From: a virus
Reading direction: 5' to 3' (one strand)
Virus record (IMG/VR): IMGVR_UViG_3300043821_000003
Length of the DNA: 47,327 bases
A program made the position numbers and the translations under genes. This document shows, in pieces, positions 4,111 to 47,327 of this stretch; the first letter of the stretch is position 1, and every line of letters begins with the position of its first letter. The notes under the pieces were generated by a model, which was not told the DNA's origin, did not search any database, and worked only from the letters and a program-made list of their open reading frames with translations.

Positions 4111-5112
4111 TTATGGATACAGTACCTTTTTATAGGTGTAGCGTTGATATTCGTAAAAATCGTTGCTCTTAGCATACACGGCTGTACTGTTAGTCCATCT
4201 TTGCAATCTGCGTAAGATTGGAGAAGCCGATGGTTTGTTATAGATCATTACATAGGGCTGACACTCACATTCTTGAATGACTTTTATTCGTTGCATATCC
4301 TGCTCAAATGTTGTATCGAAGTTTACTAAACAAAATACTTTAGCATTTCTCCAATTCCATTTAGCTTTTATTTCCTTGCAGGCATTTACATATAATCGCA
4401 AACCTTTTCTTACAGCATTTACAGATTCCATACTATCCATTGCAAAATGCGGAGTTTTAAGTTTCATAGCTGCTAATAAGTTTGCCTTTTCCTGTGTGAT
4501 TAGTCTTGCATCAAGACCTTGATTAAATTCTATGGTTGCACCGGACTTTACTAGTTGTGCTAACAAATCTCTCCATTCAGGACAAGCCAGAATGTTTGGA
4601 TCAGATAAACATATATGTCCTTGTCCATGCCAAAACTCTGACAAATCAGCAACCTTCCGGGCACATCTCCCTTCCTTCGGTGCTACATGACAAAAACCGC
4701 AACCTCTAGGGCATCCCCTTGTTAAAAAACCATAAGCGGTCTGTTGTTTTAATGGCTTTCCATATCCTGTATATTCTGGGTAAATTGAGTAATCTGGGTA
4801 GATATATTCAATTTCCGAAGATAACTCAGGGTCGAGTGATTTATCATATATTTCTCTACCATTTTGAGATTTAATGGCATATCCTGTACCACCCTTTCTT
4901 ACCTCTTTAGTATTTAAAGGTTCGGATATTTCAGGAGTATATTCTTCACTGAATACTTTTGACATATAAACAATGTCATACATATCTCTTTCGGAACTAT
5001 ACCATTCCACCAGATCCCCTTTAGATTTATGATAGGCTGATAGTTTCATTAAGCACAGGTTAGGGAAATTATGACCGTCTACATCTATCAATCCTATTTT
5101 TTTTTGTTTCAT
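4111..5112 (-). CDS. Radical-SAM protein of unknown function
   Basis: CPRGCGFC is a CxxxCxxC cluster motif. The N-terminal segment (IGLIDVDGHNFPNLCLMKLSAYHK) looks like a B12-binding/Rossmann-like domain. Confidence 0.8.
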   Translation of the reverse strand: MKQKKIGLIDVDGHNFPNLCLMKLSAYHKSKGDLVEWYSSERDMYDIVYMSKVFSEEYTPEISEPLNTKEVRKGGTGYAIKSQNGREIYDKSLDPELSSEIEYIYPDYSIYPEYTGYGKPLKQQTAYGFLTRGCPRGCGFCHVAPKEGRCARKVADLSEFWHGQGHICLSDPNILACPEWRDLLAQLVKSGATIEFNQGLDARLITQEKANLLAAMKLKTPHFAMDSMESVNAVRKGLRLYVNACKEIKAKWNWRNAKVFCLVNFDTTFEQDMQRIKVIQECECQPYVMIYNKPSASPILRRLQRWTNSTAVYAKSNDFYEYQRYTYKKVLYP

Positions 5113-5285
5113 TCATCCAAACGATCCTCAAACCAATTATTTGCATAGGAGAACAAAGCCAGATAAACTGTGCATATCACACACACAATCGTAGGAATCC
5201 ATGACTCTGAATCAATCGCACACGCTGAGATGATCCAGAGTGTACCAACAATGTAGGCAATAGCTTTCAAAACTTTATTCTTCAT
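5109..5285 (-). CDS. 58-aa small membrane protein
   Basis: MKNKVLKAIAYIVGTLWIISACAIDSESWIPTIVCVICTVYLALFSYANNWFEDRLDE has two hydrophobic segments. Its stop overlaps the radical-SAM start. It is below the ORF-track size cutoff. Confidence 0.5.
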   Translation of the reverse strand: MKNKVLKAIAYIVGTLWIISACAIDSESWIPTIVCVICTVYLALFSYANNWFEDRLDE

Positions 5286-5290
5286 AGCAT

Positions 5291-6682
5291 TTATTCTCCT
5301 TCCAAAATCCTACAGTTACATTTTCGGTAACTGGTGCATCGTTTCTTGAACGACTTTTCCAGTGACCGGATGAAGTCTACATAATCATAAGCAATCGGTT
5401 GTTCCTTCCCTTCAAAGGTTCGTGCGATACGTCCAACACTTTGAACGATCACCGCATAGTCCTTCTGAGGGGTTGTCAGGTATAGCCTGTCCAACCGTGG
5501 GATATCAAGTCCCTCTTTTGCCAGTGAGTACGATGCAAACAAGTATCTTTTCTTACCTGTCCTTATGTCCTCAATAGCCTGCTCACGCTCTGCTTTCTTC
5601 TTCTTAGTTGTCATGCTGCCATCAATGACAGCAGCTTGTGATTTCAAGTTCGGGGGCAATCCTTCAAATAGGAATTTCAGATGATCCACTCTCTCAGATA
5701 GGATCAGGTTGTAATGCTCCCGGTTGCCTACAAGGTCATTCATGATAAGCTGATTCCGGTCTGTATGAGTCGTGAGGTAAGTAATCATTTTGCAATAGTT
5801 GATCGTTCCATCACTGTTCAGAAACGCAGAATCAAGTTTCACGCCTGTACCTTTCGGCTGTACATCTACCGTCATGACTCTGGACTTTACAGCTTCATCC
5901 GGGACTGTGTAGATAACGTGTCCCAACATAGCGTATGTAGCCTTAATCAGTCCGTCTGCCCTGTGGACGGTTGCGGACAATCCGTATTTATGTCTTGCCC
6001 TGAGTGTGTTCAGCACCTTACTGAACTGGGTTACTGCGGTAGGTGTCCCGGCTACCCGGTGACATTCATCTACGATGATGCAGTCCCATGTGTCACGGTA
6101 CTGATCCAAGTCAACCTTGCACATCGTCTGGATGGTTGCAAAGGTCATTGTTTCTCCGATATTGACTTTTCCCTCTGTGATAGTTCCCAGAAGTGACTTG
6201 TCAATATATTGTGCTGCCCTGTTCTTACTCTGGGTCAGCAGGTCTTTTGTATGGGTAAGCCAAAGTGTTTTAAGCTGCATTGCACACGCAAGGGCTATGC
6301 CAATCTGCGTCTTACCTGACCCGGCAGGTGACTGTAAGATTCCGTAATGATTGATAATCATTGCTCCTACAGCTTCCTCCTGATAGTCATACAGCGGTAC
6401 TTTCGCTCCCTTATAATCTACCTTTACCTGTTTGGCAAAGAGTTTCTTCACGCCCCCTTCCAGAAGCGGGAGGATTGATCGTAAGCACCCAAACGGGATA
6501 ATTACTGAGTCACCGTCAACCTCATACATTACAAGGGTTCTGGGTGTATCTCCCAACCAGAGATTCATTCTGGCTTTCTTCTGATATTCCGGGTTCGGTA
6601 TTTCTAAATGCTTTTTACACCAGTCAACCATGTCCGGTGAAGGGTTCGTGATTCGTAATCGTGATCCGATTTCCGTAATCAT
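5291..6682 (-). CDS. Superfamily-2 DEAD/DEAH-box DNA helicase
   Basis: Walker A QSPAGSGKT, motif II IIVDECH, and a C-terminal helicase domain (QSVGRIAR). Confidence 0.85.
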   Translation of the reverse strand: MITEIGSRLRITNPSPDMVDWCKKHLEIPNPEYQKKARMNLWLGDTPRTLVMYEVDGDSVIIPFGCLRSILPLLEGGVKKLFAKQVKVDYKGAKVPLYDYQEEAVGAMIINHYGILQSPAGSGKTQIGIALACAMQLKTLWLTHTKDLLTQSKNRAAQYIDKSLLGTITEGKVNIGETMTFATIQTMCKVDLDQYRDTWDCIIVDECHRVAGTPTAVTQFSKVLNTLRARHKYGLSATVHRADGLIKATYAMLGHVIYTVPDEAVKSRVMTVDVQPKGTGVKLDSAFLNSDGTINYCKMITYLTTHTDRNQLIMNDLVGNREHYNLILSERVDHLKFLFEGLPPNLKSQAAVIDGSMTTKKKKAEREQAIEDIRTGKKRYLFASYSLAKEGLDIPRLDRLYLTTPQKDYAVIVQSVGRIARTFEGKEQPIAYDYVDFIRSLEKSFKKRCTSYRKCNCRILEGE

Positions 6683-7089
6683 TCAAATTCCTCCACCCAC
6701 TGTCGAAAAGTCTTGTACTGTGGAAATTCCTTTTCAGTGATCGTTCCCTCACCGTAAAGCTGTCTCAACATGAGTTCATCGAAGGACACCATGTAAATGC
6801 GTCCGTCTTTCAGCTTCATAGCGAAGTAACAATGCTCATTCCCGGTCTGCTCCCACAGTGTCATTGCTCCTTCCTGATTACCTTCAATCCGGGATAACGG
6901 GAAGCGGTTGGTTTCACATTCCTTGCAGTCAATCAAGACCGGGATACCATTCTTAACCGCAATCACATCTGCGGGCTGTCCTACCTGATTCTGTGCCATG
7001 TTGTGTGCCCAGAAACCATGTAAGGCAAGCAGTTCACAAAACTCTTCTTCAAAGTGGTTTCCATTTTTCTTGTTACTATTGGTGGACAT
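6679..7089 (-). CDS. Holliday-junction resolvase (Hjc/RecU-like PD-(D/E)XK nuclease)
   Basis: 136 aa with the layout GNHFEEEF ... ADVIAV ... LIDCKE, typical of archaeal-type resolvases encoded by phages. Confidence 0.7.
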   Translation of the reverse strand: MSTNSNKKNGNHFEEEFCELLALHGFWAHNMAQNQVGQPADVIAVKNGIPVLIDCKECETNRFPLSRIEGNQEGAMTLWEQTGNEHCYFAMKLKDGRIYMVSFDELMLRQLYGEGTITEKEFPQYKTFRQWVEEFE

Positions 7090-7637
7090 TACGCTTCCAC
7101 CATTTGCACCTGACGGTGCAATTTAAGATTCTTCGGATTGAATACACAAGCCGGGGCAACCCCACCGCCGCCGTACGCATAGTTGCCGCTCAGATAACCG
7201 TCCGTAACCACGACGCGAACGTAGTCACCGCTCCCGGTGTTCGAGATATACCAAGGTGTGCAAGTCCACATCCATTCAGGGAGTAGCGGAACGTGCTTAC
7301 GATACTTTCTGTATTCATCACAACTCAGGATGAAAACTCTATCTGTGACTGTGCCGTAACGGTCATCTCCGTTATCAGCTACCATGTCAACCTCATGAGG
7401 AATAAGATTATCCTCACCCAACACAGGAAGCAGTTCATTGAGCAGCTTTCTACGCAGGCTTGACTTTGCGTAGTTGTTACAGCCGTCATCATCGAAGCTA
7501 TACTCTTCGTTGTTCCAAGCAGATGCCATGATTGCCAGAACACCGCCATCCACGTTGTTGTCAAGGACGATCCATTCAAAACCCTTGAAGCCAAAACGCT
7601 CACCTGCACTTAATACACCAATGTTTTCTTCTTTCAT
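7089..7637 (-). CDS. DGR target protein 2: compact C-type-lectin/FGE-like variable protein (the alternative start at 7652 adds 5 aa)
   Basis: The C-terminus carries VR2. It shares the landmarks FILS..E, W.CTPW, TDG and GGVAPAC with target 1. GGAGGA lies 8 nt before the ATG at 7637. Confidence 0.85.
   Translation of the reverse strand: MKEENIGVLSAGERFGFKGFEWIVLDNNVDGGVLAIMASAWNNEEYSFDDDGCNNYAKSSLRRKLLNELLPVLGEDNLIPHEVDMVADNGDDRYGTVTDRVFILSCDEYRKYRKHVPLLPEWMWTCTPWYISNTGSGDYVRVVVTDGYLSGNYAYGGGGVAPACVFNPKNLKLHRQVQMVEA
7104..7121 (-). promoter_or_regulatory. Hairpin downstream of VR2 (TTGCACC-GTCA-GGTGCAA), candidate DGR target-recognition element
   Basis: Perfect 7-bp stem with a 4-nt loop, 24 nt after the end of TR homology. 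It lies inside the ORF. Confidence 0.6.
7146..7243 (-). repeat. DGR variable repeat VR2
   Basis: It aligns without gaps to the TR. By hand count there are 18 mismatches, all at TR adenines on the coding strand. Two non-A mismatches lie just beyond it at 7244-7246. Confidence 0.9.
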
Positions 7638-7639
7638 GG

Positions 7640-7789
7640 TTAATTCCTCCATTCATAATCCTTGTGGTACTTTGTCTTGTACCATTCTTCAAACTCTTTC
7701 TTGTGTTCCGCTGACTGGAAGTAGTCTTTGACTCTCTCAATCAACTGGGAACACAAAGCACTTTCTTCCATCGTAGGAACTGCCATCAT
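7640..7789 (-). CDS. 49-aa hypothetical protein
   Basis: MMAVPTMEESALCSQLIERVKDYFQSAEHKKEFEEWYKTKYHKDYEWRN. An ATGA overlap joins it to the upstream cro-like gene. Confidence 0.45.
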   Translation of the reverse strand: MMAVPTMEESALCSQLIERVKDYFQSAEHKKEFEEWYKTKYHKDYEWRN

Positions 7790-8010
7790 CACTCCTTAAC
7801 AAGAACAGAACCTTCTTCGTACTTATCAAGAATGTCGTGAGACAATTCGATGATTGCATCTGCCTTACTGCCGCTTCGTGTCCCGGCAAGTACGGAACTC
7901 ATTTCCGTCTTATCAGTAACGATCCCTCTAAGACCTAACTGATTGATAAGCCACACCTGAGTCAACTGGTGCTTTTTGAGTCGGCTACGAATGTCCTCAC
8001 GTTCTGCCAT
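7789..8010 (-). CDS. Cro-like small HTH regulator (73 aa from MAERED)
   Basis: AAGGAGG lies 7 nt upstream of the ATG at 8010. The HTH-like segment is LTQVWLINQLGL. It is transcribed divergently from the cI-like gene. Confidence 0.6.
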   Translation of the reverse strand: MAEREDIRSRLKKHQLTQVWLINQLGLRGIVTDKTEMSSVLAGTRSGSKADAIIELSHDILDKYEEGSVLVKE

Positions 8011-8051
8011 GTCGTGTACCTCCTTTCGTTGATTTTGCTTATCAACTAAAG

Positions 8052-8080
8052 TTGACAAAATACTCTTCAAAGGTTATAAT
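8052..8080 (+). promoter_or_regulatory. Consensus sigma-A-type promoter (TTGACA-17-TATAAT) facing the cI-int operon
   Basis: TTGACA at 8052-8057 and TATAAT at 8075-8080. The -35 box overlaps the palindrome TCAAC-TAAA-GTTGA. Confidence 0.5.
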
Positions 8081-8190
8081 ATGGGTGTCGAACCAATATA
8101 ACCATTGAAAACCGTCAGGGGCAAAATTAAATCCCCGGAGGGCTTGTTTTCTTTACCCTATTTTGTAAACAACTCTTGTTGACAAGACCT

Positions 8191-8219
8191 ATAATAATCC
8201 CTATCTAGGAATTTGTCAA
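8191..8219 (-). promoter_or_regulatory. Promoter (TTGACA-17-TATTAT) facing the cro-like early operon
   Basis: On the minus strand, TTGACA is at 8219-8214 and TATTAT at 8196-8191. The spacer contains TCCCTATCTAGGA, which recurs as TCCCTAGTTAGGA at 8249-8261. Confidence 0.5.
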
Positions 8220-8271
8220 GCGGTTTTAGGAAAAATTTTAAAATTTATTCCCTAGTTAGGAGGATTTAGGC

Positions 8272-8640
8272 ATGAATAATGATTTATTACTAAAACGCAT
8301 TGGTGAATTATGCACCGAAAAAGGAGTGAATAAAACAACTGCTTTTACCGAAAGTCACGTTGGTAAGAACTTCGCCAGTAACCTGAAAACCTCTAACCCT
8401 AGCCAAAAGAACCTTGCTTTATTAGCCCAGTATTTTGATTGCACTGTGGATTACCTCTTAGGTAATTCCGATGACCGGGGAACTGTAACAATCCCTATTC
8501 AGGAATCTATTCAGCTTTCTGAGGAAGAGCGTATTTTGATTTCCGCATTTAGAAGTGCTTCTATAGAAGGACGCATGAGAATCATCCAAGTCTGCATGAA
8601 TGAAAAGGATGCAAAAGGGGAAACTATCATTGCAGGATAA
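8272..8640 (+). CDS. cI-like XRE-family HTH repressor
   Basis: 122 aa. The N-terminal HTH has the DYLLG signature. RBS is AGGAGG. It sits directly upstream of the integrase. Confidence 0.8.
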   Translation: MNNDLLLKRIGELCTEKGVNKTTAFTESHVGKNFASNLKTSNPSQKNLALLAQYFDCTVDYLLGNSDDRGTVTIPIQESIQLSEEERILISAFRSASIEGRMRIIQVCMNEKDAKGETIIAG

Positions 8641-8667
8641 TAAGCATTGAGGAATGGAGGAAAAACC

Positions 8668-10251
8668 ATGTACGAAGAGATTAAGACTGCTTGTCTATAT
8701 CTGCGATATTCAAGCAGCAACCAAACTGAACAGTCCATAGAAGGTCAGATGCACGTCTGCCAAGACTTCTGCAAGAGACACGATATCAGAATTGTAGAGA
8801 TGTACATAGATCGTGCCACCTCTGCCAGTAAGGACATAGAGAAAAGAGTAGAGTTCCTAAAAATGATTAAGGACTCTGAGAAGGGAAACTTTGATGCAGT
8901 CATCGTCTATAAACTTGACCGCTTCGCCCGATCCCGGTATGACTCAGCTACTTACAAGTACCGTCTGAAAAGAAACGGTGTGCAGCTTGTCTCTGCCACT
9001 GAGAACATCACCCAAGACCCGGAAGGAATCATTCTTGAATCCGTTCTTGAAGGTATGGCAGAGTTCTACAGTGCGGAACTCTCACAGAAAATCAATCGTG
9101 GTATGAGGGAGTCAGCTATGAAGCATAACTCCATCGGTGGGGCTATCCCTCTGGGGTACAAGACCGTGGATAAGAAACTGATAGTTGATGAAACCACTGC
9201 TCCTATCGTCCGGGAAGCATTTCAGATGTATGCAGACGGTGAGTCTGTAGCCGAGATATGCAGAACGTTCAACAACCGTGGCTACAAGACTTCCAAGGGA
9301 ACACGTTTCGGCAAGAGCAGCTTCACTAAGATTTTCCGTAATGAGAAATACATCGGAGTCTATAAATACCATGACTACCGGGCAGAAGATGTTATCCCGC
9401 CAATCATTGATAAAGACCTGTGGGACAGAGTGCAGGTGAGAGTCGGTAAGATAAAGAAAGCCCCCGCCAGAAACAAGGCAAGGCATACTTACCTTCTGAC
9501 AGGGAAACTGTTCTGCGGACACTGTGGCAGTGCCATGAACGCTGACGGCAACTCACAGGGCTATTTGTATTATCGGTGTTACGGTAAAAAGAATCTGGAT
9601 AAACAATGTAATAAACGGAACATGGAAAAGAACCTGATTGAAAGACTGGTGGCACAGGACGCAATGTCATTCCTGACCGATGAATATATTGAGAAGATTG
9701 CTACTATTGCCTGTGATCGAAACAAGCAGGAAATTGAGAGTGATTCACCCATTCCTGTGATCCGTGACAGAATCAGGCAGGTTGACGTGTCTCTGAACAA
9801 TTTGCTGAAAGCTATCGAAACCGGGTCTGCCCCGGATATGCTTGTAAAGCGTATGGGAGAACTTGAAACTGAGAAGAAGGACATGGAAGTGCAGCTTAAA
9901 AAGGAAATGGCACACCAAGTCTATATTGATAAAGAGCAGGTAATCTTCTGGTTAGAGAAGTTCCGTGAAGGGGATATCAATGACGAAGAGTTCTGTCAGA
10001 CCGTGATTGATCTGTTCGTAAATTCTGTGACTGTATGGGATGAACCGGACGATAAGTTCAGGATCACCATTGCCTACAATCTTACCTCTATACCGCAAAA
10101 AACCTACCGCCTGTCGAAAGACGGTAGGTTATCGGATTACGCTTCCAATACTCCACCATTGAGTGCAAATCCAATGATATCAGGAAGCATTATGATTCAT
10201 ACCTTTACAGTCACCGTACACCCGCAGAAACGGGGAAGGAAAACCCTGTGA
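8668..10251 (+). CDS. int: Large serine recombinase (integrase)
   Basis: Resolvase catalytic domain (YLRYSSSNQ, VYKLDRFARS), recombinase domain, Cys zinc ribbon (CGHCGS...YYRCYGK) and coiled coil. GGAGGA precedes the ATG at 8668. Confidence 0.9.
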   Translation: MYEEIKTACLYLRYSSSNQTEQSIEGQMHVCQDFCKRHDIRIVEMYIDRATSASKDIEKRVEFLKMIKDSEKGNFDAVIVYKLDRFARSRYDSATYKYRLKRNGVQLVSATENITQDPEGIILESVLEGMAEFYSAELSQKINRGMRESAMKHNSIGGAIPLGYKTVDKKLIVDETTAPIVREAFQMYADGESVAEICRTFNNRGYKTSKGTRFGKSSFTKIFRNEKYIGVYKYHDYRAEDVIPPIIDKDLWDRVQVRVGKIKKAPARNKARHTYLLTGKLFCGHCGSAMNADGNSQGYLYYRCYGKKNLDKQCNKRNMEKNLIERLVAQDAMSFLTDEYIEKIATIACDRNKQEIESDSPIPVIRDRIRQVDVSLNNLLKAIETGSAPDMLVKRMGELETEKKDMEVQLKKEMAHQVYIDKEQVIFWLEKFREGDINDEEFCQTVIDLFVNSVTVWDEPDDKFRITIAYNLTSIPQKTYRLSKDGRLSDYASNTPPLSANPMISGSIMIHTFTVTVHPQKRGRKTL

Positions 10252-11673
10252 TTACAAAAGTCTGTTGACTTCTTTCTGCACAGCAGCATAATCATATCCT
10301 GCGGCAGTCAACTTGTTCTTACGGTCTGCACCATTGCCCCATTTGCCTGCGATAACTTCCTTCGCAATCTGGGTCACAGATTTCTTACTGGAAGTGCTAC
10401 CCTTTGCCAGTTCATTGACTTTTGCCTGAACCTGAGAGTAATTGTACCCGGCAGCTTCCAGTTTCTTCTTACGGTCATCACCGTTGCCCCACTTACCTGC
10501 AAGCACCTCTTTTGCGACTTCGGTAACAGACTTTGTAGGTGTGGTAGTTTTACCGCCCACAAGTCTGTTTACCGCAGTCTGTACCTCAGAGTAGTTATAT
10601 CCTGCGGCAGTGAGAGCGTTCTTTCTGGCATCACCGTTACCCCATGCACCTGCAAGAACTTCCTTTGCTACTTCATCTACAGATTTCTTTGTAGACGGAG
10701 TTACTGTAGAAGTACCACCAGAGAACTTCGGAGTAATGAAGCCACGGATGTATCTGCCATTAACGGCAATGTTTCTGTAGCCTACAGAGTCATTCTTGTT
10801 ACCCTCAATGACCTTGATCGTAGAACCGCTGACGGATACTACAATACCTACATGATCGCTCCATCCGGTACAGTCACCCACGCCGTTATCATCCCAGTCG
10901 TACAGGATCACGTCACCTGTGGACGGAACATAAGCATCATTCTCAACCCAGATTCCTGCTTTCTTCGCAAGGTTAATCATGTTCTCACAGGAACACTCCA
11001 CGCAAGGGAAGATATTGGAAAGTCCGGTTGCAATGAAAGCGGCAGATGCGGATGTAGCACACCAAGCATCGTTGACAGTCATCTTGTATCGTGTACAAAG
11101 TCCAGAGTCATTGAACACTTTCAAAATTGCTTTATGCTCTGCACTACCTTCCTTGATTCCTACATACTGTGCAAGCCAATTAACAGGCTTCTGTCTATCA
11201 CTCATATTAGTTACCCCCTTATCATACTTCGTAAGATTGTACTGTTCAACCAGTTTCATGTTATTAGTCACATAAGTAGAACTTGTGGCATATCCGTCAG
11301 CCTTGATGGTTTCCAGATATTTCTTCGGATCAGTGATTCCTTTAAGGTTCTGATATCGGGCAAGCTGAATAAATTCAAAATAACCCTTGATACCTTCCTC
11401 CATAGAATCATAGACACGGAAGTTGTCTTTGATCGTAGTAAGCGTACCCACGCTGTACTCTTCCTGAGTAGTCATGTTGACACTCTTACCTGTCCACTTC
11501 GTACCACACTTCAAACCAAAATAGTTATGATATCTGGCAGCAAGTTTGGAATTACCCCATCCTGATTCAAGAATTGCCTGTGCGATAATTGCACTATGTA
11601 CCTTAATGCCGTACTGTGCTGCATACTTCTGTACATACTTCGCTACCTGTTCAATAAATTCCTGATTCGTCAT
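10252..11673 (-). CDS. Modular endolysin: GH73 glucosaminidase + CHAP amidase/peptidase + 3 CW_7 (Cpl-7-type) wall-binding repeats
   Basis: AQAILESGWG...YFGLK (GH73). WCATSASA ... HVGIV ... IEGN (CHAP). Three copies of AKEV(L/I)AG.WGNG..RK..L.AAGY.Y..VQ..VN.L. Confidence 0.9.
   Translation of the reverse strand: MTNQEFIEQVAKYVQKYAAQYGIKVHSAIIAQAILESGWGNSKLAARYHNYFGLKCGTKWTGKSVNMTTQEEYSVGTLTTIKDNFRVYDSMEEGIKGYFEFIQLARYQNLKGITDPKKYLETIKADGYATSSTYVTNNMKLVEQYNLTKYDKGVTNMSDRQKPVNWLAQYVGIKEGSAEHKAILKVFNDSGLCTRYKMTVNDAWCATSASAAFIATGLSNIFPCVECSCENMINLAKKAGIWVENDAYVPSTGDVILYDWDDNGVGDCTGWSDHVGIVVSVSGSTIKVIEGNKNDSVGYRNIAVNGRYIRGFITPKFSGGTSTVTPSTKKSVDEVAKEVLAGAWGNGDARKNALTAAGYNYSEVQTAVNRLVGGKTTTPTKSVTEVAKEVLAGKWGNGDDRKKKLEAAGYNYSQVQAKVNELAKGSTSSKKSVTQIAKEVIAGKWGNGADRKNKLTAAGYDYAAVQKEVNRLL
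10255..10700 (-). repeat. Three ~130-150-bp coding repeats (CW_7 modules)
   Basis: The DNA blocks ggcaacggtgatgaccgtaagaag, ggcaatggtgcagaccgtaagaac and ggtaacggtgatgccagaaagaac recur with the protein repeats. Confidence 0.7.
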
Positions 11674-12315: not shown

Positions 12316-12478
12316 GATCCTGTACCTCCTGTTCGTCATCTTCCTGCTCCATCTCGATATCTGCCATCATAGCCAGATATTCAATGTCACTGTTTGCCTT
12401 TGCGATCTGTGCCTGCATTGCAGCGTTCTTCTGACGCTCTTTTACAAGCTGTTCTCTTGCACTGATAAATCCAAACAT
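12299..12478 (-). CDS. Hypothetical coiled-coil protein (59 aa from MFGF)
   Basis: GGAGGG lies 7 nt upstream of the ATG at 12478. It has an acidic C-terminus and overlaps the RT 3' end. Confidence 0.5.
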   Translation of the reverse strand: MFGFISAREQLVKERQKNAAMQAQIAKANSDIEYLAMMADIEMEQEDDEQEVQDHGEEE

Positions 12479-13575
12479 TTGCTTTCCCTCCATAAATTCT
12501 TATAATATTGATCCATACAAATAATGAGATTGTGGCAATTTCTCCTTGCCCTCCTACCCGGAGATTTCCTTTTCTTGCTACTCTCATTACCTACATGGGC
12601 TTTCCAACTTTCATAACACCTGTCAACCTCTTCCTTAGTCATGTACCCTTGCTTTGCCCTGTTTACCAACTTCCGCAGTTTCCTACGTTCGTGTGATAAC
12701 TTCTCAGGCAGTAGTGTCATGACTACCTTTCCGGTCTTTGTCAACCGGAAGCGGAAACCCAGAAACTTGATACCCTGAGTCACCTTGAAAAGCTGTGTTT
12801 TCTTCGGACTCAGTTTCAAACCTCTTGAAGATATCCAAGCATCAATCTTTATCAAACACTCCTGCAAATAAGCCTTGTCCTCATGGATGATAATGAAATC
12901 ATCGTTGTACCGGACATAGTGCTTAATGTGAAGTTGCTCTTTTATAAAATGGTCGAAGTCATCTAAGACTGCTAACTGTATAAGCTGTGTCGTTTCTGAA
13001 CCAAGACCCATGCCTACTTCTGGATCATCACCTTGATTGAAGCTGTCAATGATCCGCTTGATTTCTCCGTTCACCCATTCGTCATTGACCCTCTTTGTTA
13101 CCGCTGAGTAAGCCAGTTCATGAGAGGTGCTACCGAAGAAATTCTTCAAGTCTGCTTTGAGTACCCATCCTTCTGTACCGTGTTTCCGGTAATACTTCTG
13201 CAAGTGACAGATCAGCCTTTTCCTTGCGAACTCTGTTCCTCTTCCATCCTGACAAGCACAGTTATCATAGATAAATGATTTTGTCATGGTGTCGTAAAAG
13301 TAGTTGTCGCATAGGCTTCTCTGAAATACCCTGTCCTTGATTCTTGTACTTACAATGTCTCTTTCTTTTGGCTCATACACTTTGAACTGTGTATAAGCAT
13401 CTAACTTATATGTACCATTCTCCACGCTCTCCTTTAGCTTATGAACATTAACCAAACCATTCTTTACATACCCGGCTACACTGTCTTTCCACATGACGTT
13501 GTTCTTGCAATGCTGCATAGCCCGGTACAGATTATCAAAGTCACAGACTTCATCTCTCACTTCGGATTCCATCAT
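12442..13575 (-). CDS. DGR reverse transcriptase
   Basis: RT motifs include LGSETTQ (the DGR-type [ILV]GxxxSQ) and YVRYNDDFIIIH (YxDD). It is located next to the TR and avd. Confidence 0.9.
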   Translation of the reverse strand: MMESEVRDEVCDFDNLYRAMQHCKNNVMWKDSVAGYVKNGLVNVHKLKESVENGTYKLDAYTQFKVYEPKERDIVSTRIKDRVFQRSLCDNYFYDTMTKSFIYDNCACQDGRGTEFARKRLICHLQKYYRKHGTEGWVLKADLKNFFGSTSHELAYSAVTKRVNDEWVNGEIKRIIDSFNQGDDPEVGMGLGSETTQLIQLAVLDDFDHFIKEQLHIKHYVRYNDDFIIIHEDKAYLQECLIKIDAWISSRGLKLSPKKTQLFKVTQGIKFLGFRFRLTKTGKVVMTLLPEKLSHERRKLRKLVNRAKQGYMTKEEVDRCYESWKAHVGNESSKKRKSPGRRARRNCHNLIICMDQYYKNLWRESKCLDLSVQENSL

Positions 13576-13846
13576 GTATATTTCTCCCGTAAATCATTGG
13601 TTGCCGTTTATAGTGATACTGCCGTAAGGACGGCAATCACATCAGCACTCTGTTTTCGCCCTACTATATTCAGGTCAGGATGACGATTCCTTGTGTGAGT
13701 GCATTGATTTCAGCCTGTGCCTACTTTATTACTAGCGTTTCTCACAATCCGGGGCAACCCCATTGCTGTTGTTCGCATTGTTGTTGTTCAGATTACCGTC
13801 CGTATTCACGTTGCGAACGTTGTTACCGTTCCCGGTGTTCGGGGTA
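13576..13846 (-). ncRNA. DGR template RNA (TR plus the 168-nt TR-RT spacer)
   Basis: Non-coding on the sense strand. The spacer contains the hairpin UGCCGU-CCUU-ACGGCA (13620-13635). The RNA extent is inferred, not measured. Confidence 0.55.
13744..13846 (-). repeat. DGR template repeat (TR)
   Basis: In the target frame it reads TPNTGNGNNVRNVNTDGNLNNNNANNSNGVAPDC, with 10 AAC and 4 AAT codons. It is the adenine-containing parent of both VR1 and VR2. Confidence 0.9.
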
Positions 13847-13880: not shown

Positions 13881-14300
13881 TTACTTGTATCTATTTTCAT
13901 CAGACCTCTTCCAGTTCCGAAGAAGATTCTGGACGCTGACTACAAGTCCTGTCCAGTGATCCATCTTAGAACCTTCGATTCCGAAAGTACGGTAAGCAAT
14001 ATCCATCATGGTAAGCAAGGAATATGTCTGTGCCAAAGCCTGAACTTGATATCCTCTCCGTAATTCCCAGTCGGCTTTCCAATGTTCAGACTCAGGATTC
14101 ACATACACTGAATTTGCCATATTGATAAGTCGGCTGATCTCTACCGCAGCATCTACGATCTTCGCCGTGATGCACCAACGGTATCTCTTCGGGAAGCAAT
14201 TCTCATTACTGCAAATATGGATGGTATGTGTAGCCAACTCATTTGCTTTTGTAATTACTTCCAGTTTGGGTGTACCTCTCTTTGACTTCGGTACTGACAT
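13881..14300 (-). CDS. avd: Avd (accessory variability determinant, four-helix-bundle protein)
   Basis: 139 aa from MSVPKSKRG with RBS GGAGTGAGG. Has the FPK..R...T.KI motif and a basic C-terminus, and lies between the target and the TR. Confidence 0.8.
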   Translation of the reverse strand: MSVPKSKRGTPKLEVITKANELATHTIHICSNENCFPKRYRWCITAKIVDAAVEISRLINMANSVYVNPESEHWKADWELRRGYQVQALAQTYSLLTMMDIAYRTFGIEGSKMDHWTGLVVSVQNLLRNWKRSDENRYK

Positions 14301-14317
14301 TTTCCTCACTCCTTCCC

Positions 14318-14335
14318 CCACCCCTAACGGGGTGG
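14318..14335 (-). promoter_or_regulatory. Hairpin downstream of VR1 (CCACCCC-GTTA-GGGGTGG), candidate DGR target-recognition element
   Basis: Perfect 7-bp GC-rich stem with a 4-nt loop, 22 nt after the end of TR homology. Intergenic. Confidence 0.6.
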
Positions 14336-14345
14336 ATTTCTGATC

Positions 14346-15512
14346 TTAGATCACATTACAAGCCGGGGCAACCCCACCGCTGCTGAGCGCACTGCCGTAG
14401 CCCAGAATACCGTCCGTATACACGCAGCGAACGTAGCTACCGTTCCCGGTGTCCGGGGTACGAAGCCACCACCACTGCGGGCTACCTCCACGGTATTTGA
14501 TACGGTTCTTGTCTGCTCCTGCGTTCGCACTTGTGTAATCAGAATAGTCAGAGTAGAACGGATAAGGCTCACCCTCTGTCACATTACTTACCTCATTACC
14601 CGCAAATACTTCACGTCTGGAAAGCAGGAAAAACTTATCCTTTGTAGTATCAGAACCACCGCCATCAGTAACCGTATTACGACAAGTTACTTTTGTGGTC
14701 TTTCCGATAACTGCCAGAAAGTCTGCATCCAAACCATTCATGAAACCTGCTGTACTTGCGTTCCAAGATGGAGGTCTGTCAAACTTTGTCTGAGGTGTCC
14801 ATACAGACCCGGCAGCTTTATCACTGTTAAGGTACTGTCTCATTGCAGATTCAACCCAGTTATTAGAACCGTATCTAATTCTGTGAGAATGGTTCATGTT
14901 GGTAGTCTTACCATCCGCAGTACCAAGGTTTGTACCACCTGTACCTTCGGTAACGCCTACAGTTTCAATAGCAGCGGTGTCAGTTCTACTCTTATAGGTG
15001 GAAACCTTTGTAGTAGAAGCCTGAGTATTCCAGTTCCAAGGGAAGGTAATCTGACCGCCTGCGGGTACTTCCTTTGTAAGAGTGAACTGGTAAGTCTTGC
15101 CACCGCCATAAGCAGTGTCATAGCCTGCAAGCAGTGTAAAATTATAAGTTCCTGCCGCAAGTGCAGTCTCACAATAAAACAGTGCTTCTGGTGCATCATA
15201 CTGAGTACCCTGTAAACAGTCATGAAGCTGTAAGGTCATGCTGTGAGTGAACTGCTTGTCTGCCGGGGTATCAATGTCAAAACCGATGATATCCCACACC
15301 AGAGTTGTGCTACCTCTCTGGCAGGTCAACTGATCTCCTATAGCAAATACCTTGCTTGCCAGTCCCTTACGGACAAGTGCCTGCACATCACTCCAAGATG
15401 TAGGTTTCAGGCTACCACCCTGTCCGGTTGCAATCGCAGCAAGGAACTGGTTCATAATGTCCATCTTCTCTGCGAACGTATCGTCAGAGAGAAAACCAAA
15501 CTGATTGCTCAT
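14346..15512 (-). CDS. DGR target protein 1: tail-fibre / receptor-binding-type protein with a C-terminal lectin-like variable domain
   Basis: 388 aa ending ...FFLLSRRE...WWWLRTPDTGNGSYVRCVYTDGILGYGSALSSGGVAPACNVI. It is the last gene of the tail module, immediately upstream of avd. Confidence 0.9.
   Translation of the reverse strand: MSNQFGFLSDDTFAEKMDIMNQFLAAIATGQGGSLKPTSWSDVQALVRKGLASKVFAIGDQLTCQRGSTTLVWDIIGFDIDTPADKQFTHSMTLQLHDCLQGTQYDAPEALFYCETALAAGTYNFTLLAGYDTAYGGGKTYQFTLTKEVPAGGQITFPWNWNTQASTTKVSTYKSRTDTAAIETVGVTEGTGGTNLGTADGKTTNMNHSHRIRYGSNNWVESAMRQYLNSDKAAGSVWTPQTKFDRPPSWNASTAGFMNGLDADFLAVIGKTTKVTCRNTVTDGGGSDTTKDKFFLLSRREVFAGNEVSNVTEGEPYPFYSDYSDYTSANAGADKNRIKYRGGSPQWWWLRTPDTGNGSYVRCVYTDGILGYGSALSSGGVAPACNVI
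14358..14460 (-). repeat. DGR variable repeat VR1
   Basis: By hand count there are 18 mismatches to the TR in the 98-nt core, all at TR adenines on the coding strand. Confidence 0.9.
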
Positions 15513-15526
15513 TGTCTTATCCTCCT

Positions 15527-16405
15527 TTATCCTGTAACAACTTCGTCATACTCAAATACGGGCTTACCACCAATCACCTTGATTGCACCCTGATAGGTTT
15601 TCCCGGTATCATCGTTGACGATCATCATAGTAGCTGCTGCTTTCAATGCAGAATCGGTAGCAGTGTTGCAATCTGTGATTGCCTTTGAAGTGTCCTGCTG
15701 ACGTTTTGTCTCAGCCTGTACCCTGCTGTTTTCAGCAGTAACACGGGACTTCTCAGCCTGTACCCTTGCAGACTCAGCGGACACCCTAGACTGCTCCGTC
15801 TGAACTCTTCCACTCTCAGCCTGTACCCTTGCAGACTCAGCGGACACCCTAGACTGCTCCGTCTGAACTCTTCCACTCTCAGCCTGTACCCTTGCAGACT
15901 CAGCGGACACCCTAGACTGCTCCGTCTGAACTCTTCCACTCTCAGCCTGCACACGCTTTGCTTCGGCATCCTTGATAGCCTGCACATCTGCAATTAACTG
16001 AATCAAGATTCCGTAATCGTTATCTTTTTCAATCTCAGAGTCATCTGGTGCAGCCGCTTCCTGAACTTCCAACTCAAAGAGCGTTGTACTCAGTACCGTT
16101 TTTGTTGCTGTGATGATCGAAATATCACACTTCACAGTACCGTCAAGCTGCAACATCCAATAGGTAAGCGGTACAGTCACCGTTCCATCAGAGTTGACAG
16201 TTCCCTCAAAGGTCTTTGCAGTTTCGTCCTCACGTCTTGCATTGATGACTGCGGTAGATGCAGAATCCACATTGATACGCTCACCGCTATCCAGAAGAGT
16301 TACTTTCAGATAACGAGACTGCTTATCGTACTGCTTTGCCACGATTGCAGCAAAACGGTTAAGCTGAGATACATCCACCTCAATCTCTTTAATGATCGTT
16401 GCCAT
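15527..16405 (-). CDS. BppU-N-like baseplate/tail-fibre protein with a coiled-coil repeat stalk
   Basis: The N-terminus (MATIIKEIEVDVSQLNRF...KQYDKQSRYLKVTLLD) resembles the BppU N-domain. The centre holds 21-aa tandem repeats. Confidence 0.6.
   Translation of the reverse strand: MATIIKEIEVDVSQLNRFAAIVAKQYDKQSRYLKVTLLDSGERINVDSASTAVINARREDETAKTFEGTVNSDGTVTVPLTYWMLQLDGTVKCDISIITATKTVLSTTLFELEVQEAAAPDDSEIEKDNDYGILIQLIADVQAIKDAEAKRVQAESGRVQTEQSRVSAESARVQAESGRVQTEQSRVSAESARVQAESGRVQTEQSRVSAESARVQAEKSRVTAENSRVQAETKRQQDTSKAITDCNTATDSALKAAATMMIVNDDTGKTYQGAIKVIGGKPVFEYDEVVTG
15752..15940 (-). repeat. Three perfect 63-bp tandem repeats (21-aa unit AESGRVQTEQSRVSAESARVQ), with degenerate flanking copies
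   Basis: Units start at 15752, 15815 and 15878 and are identical when read by eye. They are in frame. Confidence 0.95.
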
Positions 16406-45496: not shown

Positions 45497-46060
45497 TTAT
45501 TCCAACTCTATGTGAATCCCTTTCATATTTTTTTTTACGGGATTTTTCTTCATGACATTACAGCAATTCGCTCCTACTTTGAAAGGTGCTTCAAAGAAAA
45601 ATTTCCATTTACTGTAGTCATATCTATGTCCATATCTCTGTACCTTTTCACTGTCAGGACTGAAACATTGTGTTGCAGCATATCCGTCAGGTTTATTTCT
45701 GGCTTCATATATTTTTCCTGAAACCTCTTTGGATATAAACGGATAACCAAACTCCGTAATAACCTGCTTGAAGTTTTTCTTCGGTTTGAGCCATACCACA
45801 TTACCGAAAGTTTTGACAAACTCTCTAATTTCAGGGTATTCCAGACCTGTATCTACAAACACCGCCGTCACATTCGGGTACATCTGACGTACCAAGTCCA
45901 ACAGAACTGTACTGTCTTTTCCACCGGAAAAGCTGACATATACGCCATCCTCTCCGTAATACTCAACCCACTGACGTATTCTGTATTTAGTCATCTGAAT
46001 TTTAGCTTTCAGAGGAAGTGACTGCATTTGCCATAAATCACTGATAACGTGTTTTCCCAT
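45497..46060 (-). CDS. PAPS-reductase/PP-loop ATP-pyrophosphatase family protein, N-terminal segment
   Basis: PP-loop motif VSFSGGKDS. The ORF ends 7 codons after an A9 run, in mid-domain (…CCNVMKKNPVKK). Confidence 0.75.
   Translation of the reverse strand: MGKHVISDLWQMQSLPLKAKIQMTKYRIRQWVEYYGEDGVYVSFSGGKDSTVLLDLVRQMYPNVTAVFVDTGLEYPEIREFVKTFGNVVWLKPKKNFKQVITEFGYPFISKEVSGKIYEARNKPDGYAATQCFSPDSEKVQRYGHRYDYSKWKFFFEAPFKVGANCCNVMKKNPVKKNMKGIHIELE
45528..45536 (-). promoter_or_regulatory. A9 homopolymer (T9 on the plus strand): the junction between the two PAPS-reductase-like frames; candidate slippage site or indel error
   Basis: A -1 shift on A AAA AAA joins ...PVKKK to YERDSHRVGITAQMASES... 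Confidence 0.6.
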
Positions 46061-46061
46061 A

Positions 46062-47111
46062 TCAATCCTTCCTCTTCTTCGGAGTGAAACGGTACTCAGG
46101 CTTTTCAGTCTCAGTCATGTACTTATCAAGCACACCGTCCTTCTCCATTGCTTCTGTATCAAAATCCTGTTTCTTCTTCATGCTGACGGTAGTGACAAAA
46201 TCATAGCTGCCACCTGTGATCGTAACAGTCTTATCACCCGGCTTGAACTGGCTCATACTTGCTTCTTTAATCAGTTCTTTCAGCTTTTCCAGACGCTTTT
46301 CATCGTCAGCTACAGTTGCATTGACCTCTTCGATGTGAAGCATAAGCCCTTCGGCTTCCTTCACCATTGCGTCCAGATCGGAGTCAGGGGAGAGGTTGTT
46401 ATCTCTCAGCACTTTCAGAATGTCAGCGTCAGCCTTTTCATCATACTTCGGAGATACACCGCCCTCTACATGAGTTTTCCACCATTTTTTAACCTGCGTG
46501 ATCGTTTTCTTCATGTTCGGATATCTCTCAGACACCTTAAACGGACGAACGAAAGTATTCTCAGCCTTACACTCATAAGCTGCCGGGTCATCGTAGTCCT
46601 TCTCACCCAGAACCGAACACACCATGATTACGTCATCAACTCCAAGCAGGTAAGCGTAAAGTGCAGCCTGTAAAGCATAATACTCAGGTACATCTTCCAC
46701 CCAGTCCTCAGACCTCTTCGTGGTTTTCATTTCCAGTACCGTTTGCGGTTTACCTTCCTTGTCCACGAGCAGATAATCCCACATACCACCGAAGATCGGT
46801 GTATCACGGAAGAAATCTCCCCACGTTTTCTTGAAGTAGTCCTCACCGTACACATCCGTAGGTGTAATCAGATTGCTCATGAAGTATGCAGTTTTCATGT
46901 ACTCTGCCTGCTTCGGCTCAATCGTCTTACCTGCGATAGTGTAGATCGTGTCCTCAAACGGTTCTTCGTAGGTTCTGGTGATTGCACACCACGCATTGAA
47001 CGGGCTTGTCCACTTATTCAGACCCATGATTGCTGCAAATCGTGTACCTGTGATCTTCTTCGGTTTCGCAGGTGGTGTAATCGTGATGGTTTTATCGTCA
47101 TTCCACTTCAT
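46062..47111 (-). CDS. YqaJ/lambda-exonuclease-like recombination exonuclease (PD-(D/E)XK)
   Basis: 349 aa from MKWNDDKT with RBS AAGGAGG. Motifs GTRFAAIMG, LEMKTTK, EYYALQAALYAYLL. Partner of the ERF protein. Confidence 0.75.
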   Translation of the reverse strand: MKWNDDKTITITPPAKPKKITGTRFAAIMGLNKWTSPFNAWCAITRTYEEPFEDTIYTIAGKTIEPKQAEYMKTAYFMSNLITPTDVYGEDYFKKTWGDFFRDTPIFGGMWDYLLVDKEGKPQTVLEMKTTKRSEDWVEDVPEYYALQAALYAYLLGVDDVIMVCSVLGEKDYDDPAAYECKAENTFVRPFKVSERYPNMKKTITQVKKWWKTHVEGGVSPKYDEKADADILKVLRDNNLSPDSDLDAMVKEAEGLMLHIEEVNATVADDEKRLEKLKELIKEASMSQFKPGDKTVTITGGSYDFVTTVSMKKKQDFDTEAMEKDGVLDKYMTETEKPEYRFTPKKRKD

Positions 47112-47327
47112 AGAACTGTCCTCCTTCTTAAATGTACTGCTTCCACAGCTTTGCAAAAGTGCTTCTGCCATCCCCGCCCTTCTTATTCAGACGGGTATAT
47201 CCTGCACGTTTCATATTCGCTCTTGCGATCATTCTCTTAAATTTCCTCATTACTTCTGCCCTCCATGTAACGGGGTTCGCTTTCCCCGATTGTTCTACAG
47301 TCAATCAGTTCCTTAATTTGTCCATCC
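46636..47327. repeat. Wrap-around copy (same sequence as 1-692)
   Basis: See the 1-692 entry. This is consistent with a circular or circularly permuted assembly, or with a terminal redundancy. Confidence 0.95.

Follow-up and report, generated by a model that had tools for sequence, protein, structure and literature searches.

Why would a temperate phage diversify a small protein encoded among its early genes? In the textbook case, a phage diversity-generating retroelement (DGR) varies the tip with which the virion binds its receptor. The locus considered here lies in a 47,327-nucleotide stretch of viral DNA (IMG/VR record IMGVR_UViG_3300043821_000003; 'the window' hereafter means this whole stretch), for which an earlier note had proposed from the letters alone that one template repeat (TR) feeds two variable repeats (VRs): VR1, in a large target gene beside the DGR cassette, and VR2, in a small gene of the early operon (7089..7652, minus strand; hereafter the small target). 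Our analysis indicates that this early-operon VR2 is very probably a remote target on which the DGR is active, and one that belongs to the known small-DUF6273 class.

A remote second variable repeat

Software alignment paired VR2 (7146..7243, minus strand; 98 nt, residues 137–169 of the small target) with TR positions 13744–13841 without gaps at an offset of −6598, as a hand alignment in the earlier note had claimed. The two repeats differ at 19 positions, and at all 19 the plus strand of the TR has a T, corresponding to A on the coding minus strand (P = 9.5e-12 for 19/19 mismatches on 33 T among 98 positions, hypergeometric test); no non-adenine mismatch between VR2 and its own TR was found. 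The note was thus right that every mismatch falls on a TR adenine, and its count of 18 needs correcting to 19, of which 18 lie in the mutagenized body and the last (TR 13748, where the TR has A and both VRs have C) is a homing-sequence boundary marker and not a mutagenized site. Its placing of the TR end at 13846 holds for VR1 and fails for VR2, whose homology stops at 13841 with G mismatches at 13842 and 13844.

VR1 (14358–14460) also has 19 mismatches to the TR, again 19/19 at T. A count from the alignment table gives 21 adenine sites at which the two VRs differ and 5 at which they have a common substitution, in agreement with the suggestion that they diversified separately. The TR (13744..13846, minus strand), which is the sole template for both, stays conserved in related loci in which VR1 and VR2 vary. 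These comparisons support VR2 as a genuine second VR that would have diversified independently from one TR, and a remote one, 6.5 kb from the TR in one direction and ~40 kb the other way round the genome.

The 3′ ends of VR1 and VR2 are identical, both finishing in GGGGTTGCCCCGGCTTGT, and the TR differs there by one base (...GGATTGT). In VR2 this sequence, which resembles an initiation of mutagenic homing (IMH) site, occupies 7146..7163 (minus strand, with GGGGTTGCCCCGGCTTGT on the coding strand); its marker C at 7150, an A in the TR, is invariant in 20/20 homologous VR2 copies, giving the difference between IMH and IMH* that characterizes a DGR variable repeat. In the literature on Bordetella phage BPP-1, a downstream hairpin is required for retrohoming. 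Such a hairpin, a further mark of a DGR variable repeat, stands 24 nt after VR2 within the 3′ end of the gene (7104..7121, minus strand; 7-bp stem and 4-nt loop, TTGCACC GTCA GGTGCAA), and another lies 22 nt after VR1 (14318–14335; 7-bp stem and 4-nt loop); none was found after the TR. The VR2 stem is kept by compensatory changes (TTGCACC/GGTGCAA in the window, TTGCGCC/GGCGCAA in related locus L033 and CTGCCGC/GCGGCAG in L078), and such changes span lineages and target families.

Population data indicate an active VR2

Variability was measured across assembled genomes, not reads of one sample, and the 70%-identity group, itself heterogeneous, was left out of these results. Among 20 related genomes, per-site variability in VR2 was 0.39 at the 33 TR-adenine sites versus 0.055 at other VR sites, and was 0.01–0.06 in the rest of the small-target gene. 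Near-identical genomes, with flanks 95–97.5% identical, were polymorphic at 32 of the 33 TR-adenine sites. Heterogeneity at adenine sites, which the earlier note had proposed to check, is thus present at VR2 across assembled genomes in which the TR is conserved. At the protein level (121 proteins, 81–100% identity), entropy was 1.68 bits at residues 137–166 versus 0.21 bits before them; its peaks coincide with the TR Asn codons, where the N/S/G/Y/D/H spectrum is as expected from AAY mutagenesis. Differences among more than 120 separate 90%-identity clusters likewise lie mainly in the VR.

At least two TR alleles exist in the lineage, and at its non-adenine positions each VR2 agrees with the allele found in the same genome: mismatches at these positions to the own versus the other allele were 0 versus 6 in the window, 1 versus 8 in L006, 1 versus 7 in L019 and 2 versus 11 in L033. 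VR2 is therefore being rewritten from its own TR, and the comparisons as a whole indicate that it is active and not a fossil.

When a TR within 10 kb of VR2 was sought in 80 related loci, most were without one. We attribute this to contigs in the prophage state or differently permuted, in which the TR lies ~38 kb off (for example, 3300045988_072292: L019, L100), and the lack of a nearby TR is no evidence that those genomes are without a DGR. At the position of a TR that is identical in ten related loci, L099:10645-10747 combines a TR-type end marker with ~10 extra adenine substitutions; this copy could be a mutagenized TR or a chimera assembled from TR and VR reads.

A stand-alone lectin-like domain

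The small-target open reading frame (ORF) encodes 187 amino acids (aa), and the true start is likely to be the second ATG, at 7637, giving 182 aa: a GGAGG lies ~8 nt upstream of it, the preceding 50-aa ORF stops at 7640–7642, and most homologues are 182 aa long, as from that start. The protein matches Pfam DUF6273 just over threshold (26.1 bits; cut-off 23.5) and phrog_9958, a family annotated as of unknown function (E 9.5e-44), and tblastn matches it to the small targets of phages nd4, nd12, Lelie and Toutatis. Both its sequence and its single domain with a C-terminal VR place it in the class of small stand-alone DUF6273 DGR targets (nd4_tgt2, Lelie orf58 and Toutatis gp24 type).

An AlphaFold2 (AF2) model built on a 97-sequence alignment is one globular domain with a predicted local distance difference test (pLDDT) score of 94.2. 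By Foldseek, it matches the C-type-lectin-like N-terminal domain of an IgA peptidase (IgAse; PDB 9qa6, E 5.8e-5; profile E 0.0038), and the matching predicted viral structures are DUF6273 phage proteins. The model thus describes the small target as a stand-alone C-type-lectin-like domain. This agrees with the earlier description of a compact lectin-like module lacking a tail-attachment N terminus and a signal peptide: no tail-attachment or anchor domain was found by Pfam or AF2, no membrane or hydrophobic segment by hydropathy (maximum 1.05), and no signal peptide was seen by hydropathy and visual inspection, which are not a dedicated predictor. The landmarks FILSCDE, WTCTP, TDG and GGVAPAC do recur in the small and large targets, as had been noticed, and the likeness between the two proteins is confined to the TR-templated segment. 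There, ~13 TR-encoded Asn codons fall on a predicted C-terminal β-strand region (residues 141–163), and published models of the family suggest that these residues would form a variable ligand-binding surface.

The prototype DGR target is Mtd of phage BPP-1, which has a C-type lectin (C-lec) fold, a C-terminal VR, and an IMH and hairpin; Mtd also carries N-terminal β-prism and β-sandwich domains and forms a trimer on the tail fibres, and its gene adjoins the cassette. The small target does not belong with Mtd-like tail-fibre proteins: AF2 predicts no N-terminal domain, and Mtd was returned neither by Foldseek nor among the sequence matches. Nor is it a tentaclin, as the 187-aa protein ends 18 residues past the VR and is without an immunoglobulin domain.

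The wider family comprises 1035 clusters at 50% identity, and most members are 170–300 aa long. Ninety-seven diverse members carry diverse short extensions (helical, acidic or zinc-ribbon-like, and one Lar-like), with 0 matches to known Pfam virion-attachment domains. In some distant members (P0251, 228 aa; P0148; P0179), the lectin-like domain is joined to zinc-ribbon segments; one of these, P0251, has a Pfam match to Lar_restr_allev (restriction alleviation). A DUF3310-like N terminus has been reported for nd12_tgt2; the window encodes a separate DUF3310 protein (602–895).

Position in the early operon

The early operon begins with a cro-like regulator (7789..8070, minus strand; 93 aa; phrog_1468 transcriptional repressor, weak E 3e-4), from which a repressor-like gene (8272–8640, plus strand) and a serine integrase (8647–10251, plus strand) diverge. 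It continues on the minus strand with a 50-aa ORF (p50; 7640..7792), which is conserved in relatives with or without a small target, then the small target itself, a RecU/Hjc-like Holliday-junction resolvase (6679..7089; Pfam RecU 27.3 bits, Hjc 20.5 bits) and an SF2 helicase (5291..6682; Pfam ResIII, Helicase_C), after which come a radical-SAM protein, a DNA polymerase and ERF. The small-target gene is tightly packed, overlapping or abutting its neighbours; the TAATG at 7087–7091, in which its stop overlaps the resolvase start, is present as the earlier note had read it.

Upstream of the cro-like gene, a consensus scan found a promoter-like site (TTGACA-17-TATTAT; 8191..8219, minus strand), a probable early lytic promoter that would drive the operon with the small target; between cro and the small target, the same scan found no promoter- or terminator-like site. 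Because of this position (gene order, packing and the sole promoter-like site before cro), the small target is likely to be transcribed early, together with cro, the RecU-like resolvase, the helicase and the DNA polymerase. Between the cro-like and repressor-like genes, near-consensus promoter-like sites at 8052–8080 (plus strand) and 8191–8219 (minus strand) face apart, one matching 12/12 and the other 11/12 positions, in a layout that resembles a classical genetic switch.

The placing of the small target in an early or replication operon, proposed for the window alone, is borne out by synteny and recurs in relatives and in unrelated backbones. Relatives retain the order int/rep | cro-p50-target-RecU-helicase even where target identity falls to 42%. 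Unrelated backbones carry targets of 62–91% identity too, and there as well the surrounding genes are early ones or serve nucleic-acid metabolism: in one, the neighbours are SSB, GIY-YIG, C5 methylase and G39P genes, and in another CCA-adding-enzyme-like, radical-SAM and RNA-ligase genes. Toutatis gp24 and nd4 tgt2 are placed among regulatory or replication genes. Homologues thus have early or nucleic-acid-metabolism surroundings in at least four other phage backbones, in which the neighbours are mostly of 'unknown function' by PHROG. In L010-L018 and L020, targets at ~10001–10560 are 86–91% identical to that of the window while the neighbouring genes are all different, and at non-adenine positions their VRs agree with the TR allele of the window or with allele B. 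The target appears to be passed from one phage backbone to another, presumably together with its DGR.

Exchange of target families in one slot

A helicase-anchored survey of 80 relatives showed that the slot between p50 and RecU is variable. It holds a small DUF6273 target, is empty, or holds one of two alternatives: a 195-aa protein ending in GVRPAFKI, or a 268–277-aa protein that has an extra N-terminal region of ~100 residues and ends in GVSFGFC(I/V). Relatives with an 'empty slot' have the 195-aa type directly after the helicase. Both alternatives are themselves remote DGR targets, with a TR 6.7–8.4 kb off, a one-base end marker and their own downstream hairpin; the mismatches fall on TR adenines in all cases in L200, L264 and L266, and in 8/9 in L189. 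Three families occupy one early region, and a small diversified lectin-like early protein is therefore a conserved design in this lineage, with exchangeable families.

Relatives with the 268–277-aa target have a small predicted two-span membrane protein directly upstream (L163:3409-3636, L165:2868-3167, L168:2652-2921 and L173:2679-2885). In L162, the two-span membrane protein is present without that target.

Relation to described systems

The arrangement, which the earlier note had treated as new, has precedents: small distal DUF6273 targets have been published (PMC10743442, PMC11792537, bioRxiv 10.1101/2024.10.15.618418), as have distal VRs near counter-defence genes (PMC12629997). Gulyaeva et al. 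(2024) described large and small DUF6273 targets in Faecalibacterium phage Lelie and candidate prophage CP11, and found that in cognate genomes both VRs vary specifically at adenines (PMC11792537). As in the window, one TR serves two VRs, the large target lies near the cassette and the small one far from it, and the VR is C-terminal. Lelie orf58, within which the published VR2 coordinates fall, is a direct homologue of the small target (30.9% identity). Lelie differs in its Toutatis-like backbone and CP11 in its TR–VR spacing, and the place of the small target among early genes is not discussed in that study.

In Toutatisvirus, Egorov and Atkinson (2024) reported that 98.8% of 173 genomes have a second VR gene, located 17,480 nt from the TR (bioRxiv 10.1101/2024.10.15.618418). 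Its product in FP_Toutatis, gp24, is a DUF6273 homologue (29.5% identity) and, like the target in the window, is encoded by a remote second VR gene amid non-structural genes. In Toutatisvirus, however, the gene is core and persists without a DGR, whereas in the lineage of the window it occupies a variable slot as exchangeable cargo; for the large target, Toutatisvirus has a Hoc-like tentaclin and the window a baseplate-adjacent protein. Baykov et al. (2023) described tgt2 of nd4 and nd12 as a single globular DUF6273 C-lec domain with the VR as a surface β-hairpin, and regard it as part of the cassette and Mtd-like (PMC10743442). The nd4 protein (WRQ08026, 234 aa) belongs to the family of the window's small target (34% identity), and VR1 and VR2 diversify independently in both phages; nd4 and nd12 differ in being small myoviruses, and their other target is a tentaclin that carries its VR at the N terminus.

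Distal second VRs next to counter-defence genes have also been reported from induced gut prophages (Nature 2025; PMC12629997). The idea is the same as that of the earlier note, given there as a brief statement without protein-family analysis, and the DGR phages of that study are mostly Bacteroidota phages. The only solved structure related to the small-target domain is the domain at the N terminus of Thomasclavelia ramosa IgA peptidase (9qa6), which has a C-type-lectin-like core without disulfides and is dispensable for catalysis (PMC12237041); it differs in being part of a secreted multidomain protease and not a DGR target. The window is thus one more well-documented example with a clearer positional argument, on a question already raised by at least four papers. 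What is added here is the breadth of the early-operon association, allele-tracking evidence for activity at a remote site and the swapping of families within one slot.

Role of the small target

Under the established DGR mechanism, TR RNA would be reverse-transcribed with errors at adenines, and the cDNA would replace any sequence with a matching 3′ homing sequence and a nearby hairpin; two sites have both, VR1 in the large target and VR2 in the small one. Each progeny genome would then carry a new small-target allele, expressed at the start of the next infection, and the product could be a soluble binder directed at a polymorphic host factor inside the infected cell, for counter-defence or host take-over. 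Recurring at the head of the early operon, and drawn in relatives from at least three sequence-distinct families each with its own TR, the second target suggests that diversification may extend to a protein acting before there are virions. Confirmation would make it the arms race's first hypervariable intracellular binder on the phage side, and binder engineering would gain a natural scaffold. We tentatively favour, with less than even confidence, a binder acting inside the infected cell. The evidence for an anti-defence or take-over function is positional, together with the one Lar-like fusion in a distant member.

Several points weigh against an intracellular binder. Early transcription is compatible with later incorporation into the virion or with action after lysis; the promoter and terminator calls are consensus matches only, and signal peptides were judged by the limited means given above. 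A literature search for virion-proteome or expression data on homologues (including Cornuault 2018) found none that covers a family member, and tblastn with the divergent member P0220 returned only the same uncultured or Faecalibacterium phages. Earlier describers lean to a receptor-binding role (PMC10743442; PMC11792537; bioRxiv 10.1101/2024.10.15.618418), and the stabilizing disulfides that Baykov et al. suggest for related domains fit an extracellular one (PMC10743442). The sole solved relative, moreover, is the N-terminal domain of a secreted, cell-wall-anchored protease.

The views of the earlier describers and the solved relative also favour the strongest alternative, a receptor-binding role for the small target, either virion-associated or extracellular (as an Mtd-like accessory adhesin or as a soluble lectin freed at lysis), from a gene outside the structural module; diversification would then broaden binding to host or mucus as with VR1. 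The baseplate-adjacent large target uses the same TR-encoded loop, and DUF6273 is found in tentaclins, Hoc-like proteins and receptor-binding proteins (PMC10743442). We nonetheless consider this role doubtful, given that the model is one globular domain with no N- or C-terminal attachment domain, that 0/97 diverse members match a known Pfam virion-anchoring domain, that the gene is packed tightly between cro/p50 and RecU, and that in at least five independent backbones it lies in early or nucleic-acid-metabolism regions, in no case next to tail genes.

A factor for lysogenic conversion or superinfection exclusion, expressed from the prophage and active in the lysogen and not in lytic growth, would suit a gene that lies near the immunity region and behaves as accessory cargo, the p50–RecU slot being empty or occupied by other families in many relatives. 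Such a factor is very unlikely here: the gene lies downstream of cro on the lytic strand, lacks its own promoter-like site and overlaps the start of RecU, and its product is without the signal peptide or membrane segment that a surface-exclusion factor usually needs. Weakest is the proposal that VR2 is an inactive fossil, or that exchange with VR1 or the TR, by ordinary recombination or by gene conversion, and not ongoing retrohoming, produced its differences; Gulyaeva et al. did find no read-level heterogeneity at the Lelie and CP11 VRs in single cultures (PMC11792537), but the purely adenine-confined mismatches to the own TR, the intact IMH and hairpin, the near-complete polymorphism of TR-adenine sites in near-identical genomes, the tracking of TR alleles and the VR-centred differences among clusters effectively refute it.

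A broader form of the intracellular-binder reading would hold that gut Clostridia phage DGRs routinely diversify a second, non-virion target, a cytoplasmic lectin-like early binder set against polymorphic host defence or take-over targets. As a general statement this is rather unlikely. If true, it would amount to an antibody-like counter-immunity system on the phage side.

The phage genome and its DGR cassette

The ends of the window are identical over 692 nt (1–692 = 46636–47327), reflecting either a direct terminal repeat or circular assembly, and the window contains a complete 46,635-bp phage genome with almost all genes on the minus strand. The integrase and repressor-like gene indicate a temperate phage; siphovirus morphology and a gut Clostridia host are inferred, and the titles of metagenome-assembled genomes give a weak indication of Clostridia (Coprococcus, Blautia, Acutalibacteraceae) as the host. 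A megablast search of 5000–9000 against GenBank phages gave 0 matches, and a cultured close relative is absent from that set.

The late operon runs from the structural genes down to a BppU-like baseplate gene (15527–16405), then the DGR, then holin and endolysin; the cassette (reverse transcriptase (RT), Avd and one TR) is placed at the late-operon end. The large, cassette-proximal target (14346..15512, minus strand; 388 aa) has a C-terminal DUF6273, contains VR1 and adjoins the baseplate gene. Beside the TR lie the Avd accessory protein gene (13881..14321, minus strand; 146 aa; phrog_3206 'Avd protein of DGR', E 6e-17) and a DGR-type RT gene (12442..13575, minus strand; 377 aa; Pfam RVT_1 E 4.4e-20; YNDD catalytic motif), which together place the system in the DGR class. 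The usual DGR RT motif is [I/L/V]GxxxSQ; the RT here has LGSETTQ at residues ~189–197, a Thr-for-Ser variant of this motif, which is linked to adenine mutagenesis.

At 10249–10254, the stop codons of the plus-strand serine integrase and the minus-strand endolysin adjoin with zero intergenic bases; attP therefore does not fall in any obvious gap between genes, and where it lies sets the distance between VR2 and the TR in the prophage. The early region also encodes a radical-SAM protein and a PAPS-reductase/QueC-like protein (4111–5112 and 45497–46060; also L011:12537-14503), which may form a DNA-modification (anti-restriction) module. In one unrelated backbone, the small target is likewise flanked by radical-SAM genes.

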